Below are positions 5,570-9,027 of a stretch of DNA of 38,716 nucleotides, one piece after another. The stretch is from a virus (Duplodnaviria > Heunggongvirae > Uroviricota > Caudoviricetes): the IMG/VR virus record IMGVR_UViG_2740892369_000044; one strand, given 5' to 3'. The notes under the pieces are model-generated. The model saw only the letters and a list, made by a program, of their open reading frames with translations, ran no database searches and had not been told where the DNA came from. How positions within the stretch are numbered: position 1 is the stretch's first letter; each line of letters opens with the position of its first letter. The position numbers and the translations under genes are program-made.

Positions 5570-6154
5570 TTATTGTTTGTTTTTTTCGTTCTGGTTGATG
5601 ACAAATTCAATGTAACTTTCGATCTTTGCCTTCTCTGTTTCAGGTAACAATGCGTAGCGCGAGCGGTCATAGTTGATAGTTGCAGGGTCATGCGGATGAA
5701 TCAGTAGTTCATATCCGTGACGCCCGAATGCAGATGCAACATTCTCCAGGGTGGAAATGGAAACGCTGACCTCATTGTTTAACAGGCGGCTTATTGTCAC
5801 CTGGGCGACGCCGGATGCGCGGTGAAGTTTTCCCTGAGTTGAAAGGTCGCGGCTTTCACTCATCCAGCGTTCCAGGTTGTGAGCTGCCAGCTGACCAATG
5901 TCGCTTGGGCCGACAGGCTGAAAACCTTCCTGAGAAAGCGAGCGATCGATATCAAGCCAGTTACGGGGTTTATTGGCGGCAGCTTCAATTTTTCGTGCAA
6001 CCTGGTCGCCGATAACCTTCTTGCCAAGAGCCCAGCGGTTTACCAGATTTGCCTGAGTTCCAAGTTTTTCAGCCATCCGCGTCTGAACACCATTGAATTC
6101 ACGGTCGATCAAGTCGTTGAGATTTTGCCTGCGGACGTCCTGGATACTTTTCAT
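5570..6154 (-). CDS. CI-like prophage repressor with two XRE-type HTH domains and no S24 peptidase domain
   Basis: 194 aa; HTH-like segments near residues 25-60 (QTRMAEKLGTQANLVNRWALGKK) and 115-150 (VAQVTISRLLNNEVSVSISTLENVASAF); divergent from the Cro-like gene with operators between. Confidence 0.7.
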   Translation of the reverse strand: MKSIQDVRRQNLNDLIDREFNGVQTRMAEKLGTQANLVNRWALGKKVIGDQVARKIEAAANKPRNWLDIDRSLSQEGFQPVGPSDIGQLAAHNLERWMSESRDLSTQGKLHRASGVAQVTISRLLNNEVSVSISTLENVASAFGRHGYELLIHPHDPATINYDRSRYALLPETEKAKIESYIEFVINQNEKNKQ

Positions 6155-6209
6155 TTTCTGGAAAATCGCCTCATATCTGAATCAGAAGATGATTCAATTT
6201 AAAGCAATA

Positions 6210-6272
6210 TTACCCAACAGGTAAATGCACCTCATGGGTAACTATCCTTGATTTTTGTTACCTTATAGGTGA
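6210..6272. promoter_or_regulatory. OR-like operator cluster: three tandem TTACC-N5-GGTAA-type sites (about 6210-6224, 6227-6241, 6258-6272) between the divergent repressor and Cro-like genes
   Basis: TTACCCAACAGGTAA, GCACCTCATGGGTAA and TTACCTTATAGGTGA read directly in the 154-bp intergenic region. Confidence 0.7.
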
Positions 6273-6308
6273 ATATTTATTATCTGAAATAAATATCAGG
6301 CAATAGCT

Positions 6309-6539
6309 ATGAGCGATAACGGACATTTCGATTTCAAAAAGCACTGGCTTGCACTTACTCCGGATGAGCGTGAAGCCTTCGCACAGGAAGCCGGAACGAC
6401 GAGTCACTATATCCAGACTCACTTAACAGGTAAGCGCAAAATGCCAGGTAAGGTATTGATGAATGGGCTTTTTAAAGCCTGTAAATCAAGACAATGGTTG
6501 CGCTCAAAAGCAGAACTGGCATACTTCTTCTACTCATGA
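6309..6539 (+). CDS. Cro-like small HTH regulator
   Basis: 76 aa; first rightward gene after the operator cluster; HTH-like segment EREAFAQEAGTTSHYIQTHLTGKR. Confidence 0.55.
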   Translation: MSDNGHFDFKKHWLALTPDEREAFAQEAGTTSHYIQTHLTGKRKMPGKVLMNGLFKACKSRQWLRSKAELAYFFYS

Positions 6540-6560
6540 TATCCAGCCACAACCCTCTGT

Positions 6561-6585
6561 AGACCGCCACCCGGCGGTCTTTTCA
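6561..6585 (+). terminator. Rho-independent terminator after the Cro-like gene (tR1-like position)
   Basis: Stem AGACCGCC / GGCGGTCT with loop ACCC, followed by TTT. Confidence 0.6.
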
Positions 6586-6594
6586 TATCTATTC

Positions 6595-6609
6595 GTACCT
6601 CAAAGGTAA
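6595..6609. promoter_or_regulatory. Additional operator-type site GTACC-TCAAA-GGTAA just downstream of the tR1-like terminator
   Basis: Read directly; same half-site geometry as the OR/OL copies. Confidence 0.4.
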
Positions 6610-6689
6610 TAAAAAACCAAATCTGGTTGATCTTTTTTTTGTGTCAGCACAAAATGACCGTAATCCCAATACTAATAACAGGGCTTACC

Positions 6690-6890
6690 ATGGAAATCAT
6701 TACACGTATTGATGCCGCAAAGCGCGGACTTAAACGCTACTACACCGGAAAACCATGTAAGCATGGACATGACAGTGAACGCTGGGTTTACAACGGACAC
6801 TGTGTTGAGTGCACCATGGAATCAAACCGTCGCATCAGGGCAGAGATTAAGCAGATCATGATTAATTCCTCCCCACAACACTCAAGCTGA
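6690..6890 (+). CDS. Small zinc-ribbon protein in the cII-like position (about 66 aa)
   Basis: Internal ATG of track ORF 6627..6890; Cys/His cluster CKHGH...CVEC; function not inferable from motif. Confidence 0.4.
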   Translation: MEIITRIDAAKRGLKRYYTGKPCKHGHDSERWVYNGHCVECTMESNRRIRAEIKQIMINSSPQHSS

Positions 6891-6905
6891 TAGCGGAGAT
6901 TAATC

Positions 6906-7721
6906 ATGAGCAGACATGCAACAGATTGGGCCTGGGAGACAGATCCAGGTAGCTCATCATTAAAGCTCATACTGCTCTCGATGGCTGACAGAGCCGATGA
7001 ATATAACCTCTGCTACCCCAGCATAGAACGCCTCGTTAAAGACACTTGCCTGAATAAAAAAACCGTGCAGGCCGGGCTTATATCGCTCATGAAAATGGGG
7101 CTTATTTCAGATACCGGAGAGAGAAAGGGAGCGACGAAAAGAGTGCGGGTTTTCTCTCTTAATATAACCAAAAACGGGAACATTAAAGGCAACCGGGAAG
7201 GGGGTAATGAACCCGAAAACGGTAATGTTACCGAAAACGGGAATATACCCAAAAACGGGATGTTGAATGATCCCAAAAACGGGATGTTGAATGATCCCAA
7301 AAACGGGATCCAGAACCAGTCATATAACCAGTCATTTAACCAAGAGAGGGAGAGCAGGACAAAAAGCGGGGATTCTGTGCCTCATGACCCCGGCGCAAAC
7401 AACGCCGTGATGAATAACTTTGTTCCTCCTGGTGGGCCAGGGCAATTAGGCAAATTTGTCATGCATGAACAATGGCAACCATCAGATGACTTTCTTCGGA
7501 AAAGCTCATTGCAGGGGATCTACCTGGACAGTCTGCCAACGGCACAGGAACTTGCAGAGTTCAGAATTTACTGGATGGCTGAGGGTAAGGCATACCATCA
7601 GGCGCAGTGGGAGCAGAAGCTGGCAAGGCGGCTGCAGATTAGCAGACAGAAGCAATCAACATTACCTGATAACAACGTTCCGCACTGGAACAGCCCTGAA
7701 GCATGGGAGGATTTCTTGTGA
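6906..7721 (+). CDS. Replication initiator, lambda O-like (N-terminal HTH DNA-binding domain, repeat-encoded linker, C-terminal domain)
   Basis: 271 aa; N-terminal DWAWE...KLILLSMADRADE...CYPSIERLVKDT pattern of phage replication initiators; internal DNA repeats encode KNG/ENG peptide repeats; stop overlaps the P-like gene start. Confidence 0.75.
   Translation: MSRHATDWAWETDPGSSSLKLILLSMADRADEYNLCYPSIERLVKDTCLNKKTVQAGLISLMKMGLISDTGERKGATKRVRVFSLNITKNGNIKGNREGGNEPENGNVTENGNIPKNGMLNDPKNGMLNDPKNGIQNQSYNQSFNQERESRTKSGDSVPHDPGANNAVMNNFVPPGGPGQLGKFVMHEQWQPSDDFLRKSSLQGIYLDSLPTAQELAEFRIYWMAEGKAYHQAQWEQKLARRLQISRQKQSTLPDNNVPHWNSPEAWEDFL
7168..7310. repeat. Iteron-like direct repeats inside the O-like gene; candidate replication origin
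   Basis: At least six copies of CC(N)AAAACGG(G/T)A within about 140 bp, including two perfect 24-bp copies CCCAAAAACGGGATGTTGAATGAT; followed by an AT-rich stretch with CAGTCAT(A)T(A)AACCA repeated twice. Confidence 0.6.
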
Positions 7722-8503
7722 ACAACGTTTTTACCGCAATACAAAACCGTGACGGAGAAGCTCTTTCTCGCATGTCAGGTTATGAGCATCAGTACGTCAA
7801 CAATGACAACGTAGTGAACATGTCAGCAGAGAGGCTTGTTGATGCCCTTTTCAAACAGTTGAAACAACTGTTTCCGGCGGCAGTGGTAACCAACCTGAAG
7901 ACGCCAGAGCAGGAAGTTGCTGCAAAACAGCAGTGGATTGCTGCGTTTGCCGAAGGGGGGATCCGAACCCGTGAACAGGTTTCTGCTGGTATGCGCCACG
8001 CCCGCGCCAGTGATTCTCCGTTCTGGCCGTCGCCAGGGCAATTCATCAAGTGGTGCAAAGACAGCAAGATGGTTCTTGGCGTCACCATTGACGATGTGAT
8101 GACGGAGTTTCACCGGTACAGCAAGGAAAAAAGTTTATATCCTGGCGGTCCCGAAAGATTCCCGTGGCGGCATCCGGTTATGTACTGGGTTGTATGTGAT
8201 ACCCGCCGCGCAATGTATCAGCGCCAGCTTAGCGAGATTGAGGTTGAGAAACACGCGCGCAGGTTGCTCGATGATTGGGCGAAAAAGGTGGCTTCCGGAC
8301 AGCAGATACCCGATCCGGTGATCAGCATACAGGCAAAGCCAGAACCCATGAGTACGCCTCCGGACACAGGGAGAGACGTTTACCACCCGCCAGGGCGAAG
8401 TTTCGGGTGCATGCCTAACGCCGCCACCCTGGGTGGAATAACACCGGCACAGTGGCTGATGGAGGAATACAGGCGGGGAAAGGCGGCAGGATTTATCAAG
8501 TAA
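7718..8503 (+). CDS. Replication protein P-like (DnaB helicase loader)
   Basis: QQWIAAFAEGGIRTREQVSAGMRHAR and FWPSPGQFIKWC match the lambda P segments RQWVLAFRENGITTMEQVNAGMRVAR and FLPSPGQFVAWC; GTG start with GGAGG ribosome-binding site overlapping the O-like stop. Confidence 0.85.
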   Translation: MNNVFTAIQNRDGEALSRMSGYEHQYVNNDNVVNMSAERLVDALFKQLKQLFPAAVVTNLKTPEQEVAAKQQWIAAFAEGGIRTREQVSAGMRHARASDSPFWPSPGQFIKWCKDSKMVLGVTIDDVMTEFHRYSKEKSLYPGGPERFPWRHPVMYWVVCDTRRAMYQRQLSEIEVEKHARRLLDDWAKKVASGQQIPDPVISIQAKPEPMSTPPDTGRDVYHPPGRSFGCMPNAATLGGITPAQWLMEEYRRGKAAGFIK

Positions 8504-8508
8504 TACCA

Positions 8509-8529
8509 GCGCGATAGCGCATTTTTTTT
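8509..8529 (+). terminator. Probable terminator after the P-like gene (short GC stem plus T8)
   Basis: GCGC-GATA-GCGC followed by ATTTTTTTT. Confidence 0.4.
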
Positions 8530-8541
8530 ACGCCTAGATGA

Positions 8542-8618
8542 TTACCTGGTGGGTAATAAAATATACTAAAATCTATTGATTTCGTGTCTTATGTGGTTTT
8601 TAATTACCTCAGGGGTAA
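8542..8618. promoter_or_regulatory. Promoter region with two TTACC-N5-GGTAA sites (about 8542-8556 and 8604-8618) flanking a TTATGTGGTT box (about 8589-8598)
   Basis: TTACCTGGTGGGTAA and TTACCTCAGGGGTAA read directly; the second site abuts the ATG at 8622. Confidence 0.55.
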
Positions 8619-8621
8619 ATC

Positions 8622-8966
8622 ATGAGAAAACAGATACAGGCTCTTGGTCGACTCAAAACAGGCCAGATGAACAAAACAGAATCTGCGTATTGCCAGCACC
8701 TTGAGCAGCGTAAACGTGCAGGGGAAATCGCCTGGTATCGATTCGAGGGTCTCAAGCTGCAGTTAGCTGACAACACGTTCTATACGCCCGATTTTGCTGT
8801 GATGCTCGCCACCGGCGAGATGGAACTGCACGAAGTGAAAGGTTTCTGGACCGATGACGCCAGGGTGAAAACCAAAGTCGCCGCAGATCAGTATCCGTTC
8901 CGAATCATCGGGGTAACGGTTAAACCAAAGAAAGCAGGTGGTGGCTGGAACATCGAAGAGTTCTGA
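8622..8966 (+). CDS. VRR-NUC domain nuclease-fold protein
   Basis: 114 aa; FYTPDFAVM...ELHEVKGF matches the PD-x(n)-E-x-K signature of VRR-NUC domains. Confidence 0.65.
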   Translation: MRKQIQALGRLKTGQMNKTESAYCQHLEQRKRAGEIAWYRFEGLKLQLADNTFYTPDFAVMLATGEMELHEVKGFWTDDARVKTKVAADQYPFRIIGVTVKPKKAGGGWNIEEF

Positions 8967-9027
8967 ATCGACGATCTTTTTAGTTATCAATGTAATCAAT
9001 AAGTTATGTGGATAAGCGAGGGTAAAG

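Follow-up and report, generated by a model that had tools for sequence, protein, structure and literature searches.

IMG/VR virus record IMGVR_UViG_2740892369_000044, a 38,716-nucleotide (nt) stretch of DNA analyzed in full here (the window), carries six direct repeats within a gene at positions 6906–7721 whose product is very probably an origin-binding replication initiator with a borrowed DnaT-type C-terminal domain (C-domain). Our data suggest that these repeats are iterons for the N-terminal winged-helix domain (N-domain) of that product and that, together with an adjoining low-stability tract of 12-mers, they form an origin of bidirectional (theta) replication, a reading to which we assign a probability of about 0.8. 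An origin of the lambda type, located inside the gene for its own initiator, is supported, the initiator family combining an HTH_36 N-domain with a DnaT-like C-domain. We infer initiator binding, unwinding, helicase loading and origin activity from the repeats themselves, their conservation, their linkage to the N-domain, the architecture of the gene and the P-like gene beside it. The features on which the argument turns are as follows (aa, amino acids; ORF, open reading frame).

6906–7721, plus strand: replication initiator gene, 271 aa; an ORF with a PHROG 1032 match and 97% DNA identity to the phiV10 gp43 region
6906–7166, plus strand: N-terminal winged-helix domain (aa 1–87), presumed iteron-binding module; Pfam HTH_36 at aa 18–67, E 1.8e-10
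7168–7179, plus strand: iteron 1 core CCAAAAACGGGA, isolated, 45 bp ahead of iteron 2
7213–7224, plus strand: iteron 2 core CCGAAAACGGTA
7231–7242, plus strand: iteron 3 core CCGAAAACGGGA
7249–7260, plus strand: iteron 4 core CCAAAAACGGGA, opening a perfect 24-bp tandem repeat
7273–7284, plus strand: iteron 5 core within the dyad ATCCCAAAAACGGGAT (7270–7285); the unit has a GATC site
7297–7308, plus strand: iteron 6 core within the dyad ATCCCAAAAACGGGAT, with a GATC site on either flank
7308–7347: low-stability 40-mer directly right of the array; nearest-neighbour free energy -48.7 kcal/mol
7313–7349, plus strand: three phased 12-mers, GAACCAGTCATA, TAACCAGTCATT and TAACCAAGAGAG; candidate unwinding or second protein-binding element
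7455–7661, plus strand: DnaT-like C-domain (aa 184–252), presumed partner of the loader and/or of single-stranded DNA; PF17948, E 1.2e-15
7703–8503, plus strand: lambda-P-like helicase loader gene; Pfam Phage_lambda_P (PF06992), E 1.7e-56; PHROG 109, 'P-like helicase loader'

The repeat array and the gene that contains it

The motif CCNAAAACGGKA occurs exactly six times on the plus strand of the window, each time with 0 mismatches, at starts 7168, 7213, 7231, 7249, 7273 and 7297. No further site was found in the 38.7-kb window at up to one mismatch, allowing two mismatches added only scattered, chance-level sites, and dinucleotide shuffles contained a mean of 0.87 copies, with six reached in 0 of 100. 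An earlier sequence-only reading of this DNA had counted at least six copies within ~140 bp, and the six at 7168–7308, unique in the window, bear that count out. Start-to-start spacings are 45, 18, 18, 24 and 24 bp, and Tandem Repeats Finder reported both an 18-nt unit (3.1 copies at 7203–7258) and a 24-nt unit (2.6 copies at 7248–7309, 100% identity), the latter corresponding to the perfect 24-bp repeats described earlier. The conserved unit is ~18 bp long, AT(G/A)N(A/T)CCCAAAAACGG(G/T)A, and contains a partial dyad that reads ATCCC/GGGAT in copies 5 and 6 and has arms of 3–4 bp in the others. A lambda-type origin would be expected to show at least three to four direct repeats of ~18–19 bp, with internal dyad symmetry, in the middle of the initiator gene, and the six copies here, with their partial dyad, agree with this. 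All six share one codon phase and encode (T/P)(K/E)NG within the interdomain linker (aa 88–180), 77% of which consists of N, G, P, Q, S, E, K, D or T; a low-complexity linker of this kind tolerates the gain and loss of repeats, and hence the KNG/ENG peptide repeat that the sequence-only reading had placed there.

The product of the gene is labelled 'primosomal protein I / DnaT-like' in GenBank. Its best PHROG match is 1032 ('replication initiation protein', E 1e-108), and its N-terminal half matches PHROGs 678 and 345 ('replication initiation O-like'), both of which are also matched by the N-domain of lambda O. Residues 180–265 align with E. coli DnaT residues 85–170 (structures 9zbt, 6aep and 4ou6, E ~1e-20); none of the six PDB matches reaches DnaT residues 1–84, so the protein is not similar to DnaT over its full length. 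No lambda-O-type P-binding C-domain was found in the initiator, the C-domain being DnaT-like instead. An AlphaFold2 model built without an alignment was uninformative (mean pLDDT 38). By residue, the layout is HTH_36 at aa 18–67, the iteron array at codons 85–135 and the DnaT-like domain at aa 184–252, such that the repeats lie between the regions encoding the DNA-binding domain and the C-terminal interaction domain, a position equal to that in lambda. Also as expected of a lambda-type origin, a lambda-P-family loader gene lies directly downstream, and the two genes overlap at the initiator stop codon (in the phiV10 annotation the loader starts at a GTG at ~7718, within this overlap). The 'primosomal protein I / DnaT' label is misleading; the gene is part of a phage initiator–loader module and not of a restart primosome.

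The short repeat pair that had been noted after the array, AACCAGTCAT(A/T)T, is present and belongs to a wider feature. Tandem Repeats Finder reported a 12-nt unit, AACCAGTCATAT, in 2.4 copies at 7314–7342, which extends to three phased 12-mers, each with a [G/T]AA[C/T]C unit, at a spacing of 11–13 bp. Of 27 homologous loci, 17 have three such units after their last iteron, versus none of 7826 background windows, a contrast that is somewhat inflated because the pattern was defined from the same sequences; the codon phase of the units varies between loci. The 40-mer that adjoins the array on its right has one of the lowest stabilities in the gene; just 1.6% of the ORF's 40-mers fall below it, and these are at the array's left edge, at ~7149. 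Among 20 representative loci, the equivalent 40-mer is the least stable of the ORF in nine and falls within the lowest 2% in 14, including that of the window. Conservation of the phased 12-mers extends from Enterobacterales to Desulfovibrionaceae, whatever the reading frame, the C-domain or the type of loader. It is possible, though we regard it as doubtful, that they are a family-specific element for strand opening or single-strand capture that is read by the initiator, in the manner of oriC 13-mers or DnaA-trios. If so, the origins of this widespread HTH_36 initiator family would have a two-part grammar (an isolated iteron, two at 17–18 bp and two or more at 22–24 bp, then three 12-mers) that could predict origins in thousands of prophages.

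Several other features of the array were considered. In close relatives, polymorphism within the gene is highest in the 45-bp gap between iterons 1 and 2 (7180–7212; peptide NIKGNREGGNE), and a degenerate seventh copy at ~7190 (CAACCGGGAAGG) was not counted, being too weak and lying in this spacer, the most polymorphic part of the array. GATC (Dam/SeqA) sites at 7269, 7293 and 7307 place three within 42 bp at iterons 5 and 6, which ties the densest GATC cluster of the window; methylation or SeqA could modulate origin use through them. Two minus-strand terminator-like hairpins (7256–7299) were set aside as a probable by-product of pairing between neighbouring iteron arms plus a T-run, and formation of a cruciform, or of a hairpin on the displaced strand, is conceivable over the same interval. 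Ribosomal frameshifting at CCC AAA AAC was rejected, as the zero frame gives no X XXY YYZ heptamer. No DnaA box or convincing IHF site was found in or beside the array, and promoter-like sites were not enriched.

Conservation of the repeats and their linkage to the N-domain

A scan of viral contigs returned only relatives with N-domains 99–100% identical to that of the window, which are informative about copy number and not about divergence; a protein search with the initiator likewise yielded nothing beyond near-identical variants from E. coli. In 80 of the viral-contig relatives, all nearly identical, the number of iteron copies ranges from 4 to 9, the pattern of the window being modal. The interdomain linker varies in length in nature, in proteins of 263 to 311 aa with one to seven MLNDPKNG units. 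In the 40 haplotypes that have the window's pattern, 4 of 72 columns are polymorphic in iteron cores versus 11 of 80 in spacers, with mean minor counts of 0.11 and 0.95, respectively.

More distant N-domain homologues were found in six phages (57–44% identity) and, using a four-sequence alignment as the query, in 27 bacterial genomes of different species (87–30% identity). One of the 27 genome loci was too short to analyze, leaving 32 homologous loci, or 33 with the window. For each, we took 360 bp beginning 30 bp before the end of the N-domain and determined the largest family of 12-mers related by up to two mismatches, with 30 shuffles as a control. Four to seven copies of a related 12-mer, starting within a few tens of bp after the N-domain, were present in 29 of the 33 loci, which extend from Enterobacterales to Methylobacterium; the shuffle maximum was three copies per locus (four in one locus). 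The sequence-only reading had held that absence of the repeats from homologous O-like genes that retain origin function elsewhere would speak against an origin, and the opposite was found, with arrays directly after the N-domain in nearly all of them.

Of the 29 arrays, 25 have at least one spacing that is no multiple of three, usually 17 or 22 bp. Within a single protein of Acinetobacter prophages, AACAGTCCCAACAACGG is translated as TVPTT, as NSPNSG and as QFQQF. The N-domains of these prophages are 47–50% identical to that of the window, and their spacing plan is 46, 17, 17, 22 and 22 bp versus 45, 18, 18, 24 and 24 bp in the window, the first iteron being likewise isolated by a 46-bp gap. 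In Enterobacterales, Vibrio and Pseudoalteromonas, the motif takes the form AT(G/A)N(A/T)CCCAAAAACGG(G/T)A, as derived from 42 distinct sites. Acinetobacter and Burkholderia phage Bcep176 have AACAGTYCCAAC, Desulfovibrionaceae have CNCCCCCGAAC and Methylobacterium has ATCAACCGGCAA; the motif drifts gradually alongside N-domain divergence, from CCCAAAAACGG to AACAGTCCCAAC, CNCCCCCGAAC and ATCAACCGGCAA. The DNA core is retained for N-domains down to 44–58% identity, and the flanking codons differ. Because 25 of 29 arrays have out-of-frame spacings and one motif is read in two or three frames, selection acts on the DNA and not on the peptide. On the evidence of these comparisons, the repeats are conserved at the DNA level, not at the peptide level.

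The array follows the N-domain regardless of what the N-domain is joined to. It is accompanied by a DnaT-like C-domain and P in the window and in PPompW prophages, by a genuine lambda-O C-domain and P in Edwardsiella phage GF-2, and by other C-domains and a DnaB-like helicase in Acinetobacter phages. Conversely, two Uetakeviruses, ZX5 and Tyrion, have unrelated N-domains with the DnaT-like C-domain and P retained, and in both the motif is absent. Among relatives, iterons and initiator N-domain thus change together, the pattern expected of replication-type specificity. The diverged, exchanged block between ZX5 and the window (6633–7972) comprises a small ORF, the whole initiator gene and approximately the first third of P, and its extent suggests co-evolution of the initiator C-domain with the N terminus of P. 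Tyrion keeps the upstream small ORF at 80% DNA identity without the motif; the small ORF (6690–6890) is therefore not the partner of the iterons.

Across Uetakeviruses, three unrelated N-domains occur on the same DnaT-like C-domain and P-like loader (window 6633–7972; ZX5 782–1612; Tyrion 1280–2047). The ZX5-type initiator gene contains two 19-bp palindromes, GTAACGC-N5-GCGTTAC, at 930–948 and 1139–1157, 209 bp apart, which may be cognate sites of that different N-domain.

A proposed initiation mechanism and its alternatives

According to the mechanism that we propose, transcription of the early rightward operon would yield the initiator, the N-domains of which would occupy the ~18-bp units AT(G/A)N(A/T)CCCAAAAACGG(G/T)A, possibly as dimers, as the partial dyad ATCCC...GGGAT suggests. 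The array, which contains A-tracts, would be wrapped into a complex resembling the O-some, and the duplex would open in the adjoining tract at 7308–7349. The DnaT-like C-domain would then recruit the P-like loader with host DnaB, hold the single strand, or do both.

Several observations weigh against an origin at this location. The segment right of the array, described earlier as AT-rich, is only modestly so, its GC content being 36% over 7313–7345 (36–38% over 33–37 bp) versus 49% for the window and 22% for the lambda tract; that description is true only in a relative sense, even though 7308–7347 ranks by stability with the weakest 40-mers of the gene. Intergenic stretches at 6580–6660 and 8520–8600 are AT-richer (27–33% GC). 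A Pfam scan of the initiator (E up to 0.01) matched HTH_36 and DnaT only and not Phage_rep_O (PF04492), to which lambda O itself matches at E 5.7e-36, and hhalign of the N-domain alignment against lambda O gave a weak result (probability 4%, E 0.0098) that is insufficient alone to establish homology. The name 'O-like', given to the gene in the sequence-only reading, hence suits its function and position and not its family, which is HTH_36 with a DnaT-like C-domain. The sole DnaA-box-like site, at 7717 on the minus strand, has one mismatch and is 400 bp from the array. A literature search returned only work on lambda and Stx phages and no account of iterons for phiV10, for epsilon15 or for phage initiators of the DnaT-like kind. 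Lastly, all six copies lie in one reading frame and three 24-bp units are identical, and within this phage alone much of the repetition could be explained by recent slippage.

The last of these points leads to an alternative in which the array is a peptide repeat, or slippage-prone low-complexity DNA, in a flexible linker and has no function as DNA. Such an explanation would accommodate the single codon phase with its (T/P)(K/E)NG product, the 100% identity of the 24-bp units, the linker that is 77% N/G/P/Q/S/E/K/D/T, and the 4 to 9 copies in 80 close relatives together with protein lengths of 263–311 aa, variation that is typical of slippage; because all copies are in frame and three are identical, the window alone cannot settle the matter. 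The homologous loci, however, are hard to reconcile with it: the 17- or 22-bp spacings in 25 of 29 arrays put the motif in different frames, giving different peptides, the DNA core is kept down to 44–58% N-domain identity despite changed flanking codons, and very distant members share a spacing plan. Iteron cores are, moreover, less polymorphic than spacers. We therefore regard a repeat of purely peptide or slippage origin as very unlikely. We hold it just as improbable that the repeats are bound by a different protein, either a host factor (DnaA, IHF or SeqA) or the product of ORF 6690–6890. SeqA or Dam could act at the three GATC sites in 7269–7310, and the small zinc-ribbon-like ORF is part of the cassette exchanged in ZX5, but the array has neither a DnaA-box consensus nor a good IHF site, and Tyrion combines the small ORF (80% DNA identity) with a different N-domain and lacks the motif. 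Binding by another protein is unlikely because the motif goes with the N-domain in hosts from Enterobacterales to Desulfovibrionaceae and Methylobacterium, across different upstream genes and host factors.

The initiator could also bind the repeats mainly for control (titration, autoregulation or replication-type exclusion), with the duplex opening elsewhere, for example at 6580–6660 or 8520–8600. Iterons of plasmids also serve in copy control, and both intergenic stretches are far AT-richer than the tract beside the array. The two distal iterons of Stx phages, which are bound weakly yet required for plasmid replication (PMC7466680), can be cited in favor of a control role as well. On the other hand, the AT-rich intergenic stretches coincide with terminator and gene-start regions, no iteron copy lies near the early promoter region or elsewhere in the window, and the low-stability tract and the triple repeat are conserved beside the array in distant homologues with other flanking genes; in 9 of 20 homologues, no 40-mer of the ORF is less stable than the tract. 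A role in control only is less likely because this conserved low-stability tract adjoins the array, and we consider it improbable. The reading that best accommodates the data is the one given at the outset, in which the array and the adjoining tract together would serve as the origin.

Phage context and known systems

On DNA identity and gene order, the window is a phiV10-like Uetakevirus: bases 6600–8600 share 97–98% identity with Escherichia phage phiV10 and with further Uetakevirus records from E. coli, and the local gene order is that of the phiV10 early-right region. In addition to the genes listed above, the region contains the following.

5570–6154, minus strand: repressor-like gene
6309–6539: small gene at the Cro position, followed by a terminator
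6690–6890: zinc-ribbon-like ORF, 66 aa, directly upstream of the initiator gene

The 66-aa ORF has a CxHGH...CxxC zinc-ribbon-like motif, belongs to PHROG 1081 (function unknown) and is conserved in phiV10, epsilon15 and Tyrion. A DUF1064 gene comes next after the lambda-P-family gene, and no Rfam family matched within 6000–9000.

Related modules were encountered in several unexpected records. The circular E. coli plasmid pZ1323HEC0067-2 (NZ_CP148379.1, 8461 bp) has as its only replication genes a PPompW-type initiator, with an N-domain 49% identical to that of the window and a DnaT-like C-domain, a P-like gene and regulators of the DicA/DicC type; an autonomous replicon resembling lambda-dv and an assembly artefact are both conceivable. 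E. coli pHL15EC-2 (NZ_CP079771.1, 41027 bp, a circular 'plasmid') is a complete phiV10-like genome whose initiator N-domain is identical to that of the window, and the assembly probably captured a phage that was excised or replicating. A phiV10-type immunity and replication module is present near one end of Escherichia phage BP9 (PP488543.1, 134131–137106; a 138-kb Vequintavirus by classification) and of phage PH444 (PP350014.1, a 115-kb record), and these two assemblies may be chimeric or contaminated.

These results place the probable origin of phiV10-like phages, which serve as O157:H7 reporter and typing phages, within ~200 bp, which should aid engineering and the construction of phage-derived replicons. 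They also provide a simple sequence rule by which origins can be located in many Proteobacteria prophages (an HTH_36 N-domain, then 4–7 iterons at 17–24 bp spacing, then three phased 12-mers) and a clear case of DNA-level constraint across a protein-coding linker in several reading frames. They leave the understanding of lambdoid-type initiation unchanged: the layout is an ordinary, lambda-like one, in an initiator family where, as far as we could find, it had not been described before.

Iteron plasmids with Rep_3-type initiators (pPS10, F, R6K and RK2) have direct repeats of 17–22 bp, a winged-helix initiator and an adjacent unwinding element with short phased repeats. The window similarly has direct repeats for a winged-helix initiator (the presumed ligand here) beside a tract of phased repeats. 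It differs from these plasmids in that the Pfam scan of the initiator (E up to 0.01) matched no Rep_3-type family, no DnaA box is nearby, the putative origin is intragenic and the loader is of the lambda-P type. The similarity to E. coli DnaT (primosomal protein I) is confined to residues 180–265, which correspond to the three-helix domain by which DnaT binds single-stranded DNA; an HTH_36 domain and an iteron-bearing linker take the place of DnaT residues 1–84.

Edwardsiella phage GF-2 'replication protein O' and its relatives (PHROG 391) are a closer counterpart. The GF-2 N-domain is 57% identical to that of the window, its iterons are nearly identical (AATGATCCCAAAATTGGGA; spacings 17, 18, 24 and 24 bp), the same CAGAAYCAGTCAT tract as in the window follows the array and a P-like loader lies downstream. 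Unlike in the window, however, the N-domain and iteron module is joined to a true lambda-O C-domain (PHROGs 277 and 2357) and not to a DnaT-like one. No experimental characterization of the GF-2 replication protein was found in the literature.

The nearest characterized system is ori-lambda, as found in lambda and in the Stx phages 933W and P27, and its layout (DNA-binding domain, iterons, less stable repeat tract, partner-binding C-domain and P-like loader) is matched by that of the window. In lambdoid origins, iterons plus an AT-rich tract occupy the middle of O. The iterons number 4 to 6, lambda having four and Stx phages six, with a corresponding insertion of 13 residues in O (PMC7466680). 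The iterons of lambda, ATCCCTCAAAACGAGGGA and variants, begin at O codon 117, PF04492 ending at residue 115, and a 22%-GC tract comes next; in the window, the array begins at codon 85–88, likewise just past the N-domain. The differences from ori-lambda concern the parts. The N-domain is HTH_36 and that of lambda is Phage_rep_O, with only remote homology between them (PHROGs 678 and 345; weak hhalign), and the C-domain is homologous to E. coli DnaT, not to the C-domain of lambda O. The dyad is shorter (ATCCC-N6-GGGAT versus ATCCCTC-N4-GAGGGA), the copies are all in frame and create a peptide repeat, and the tract is far less AT-rich and has three phased [G/T]AAYC 12-mers. The arrangement, in contrast, is shared: in both systems the (in the window, putative) origin lies inside the initiator gene, between the regions encoding the N-domain and the C-domain, and has 4–6 direct repeats of ~18 bp with a TCCC...A-tract...GGGA dyad and a shared CG, a less stable tract on the C-terminal side and a P-family loader as the next gene. 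In both, too, the number of iterons varies between relatives, and the N-domain and its iterons behave as one exchangeable module.

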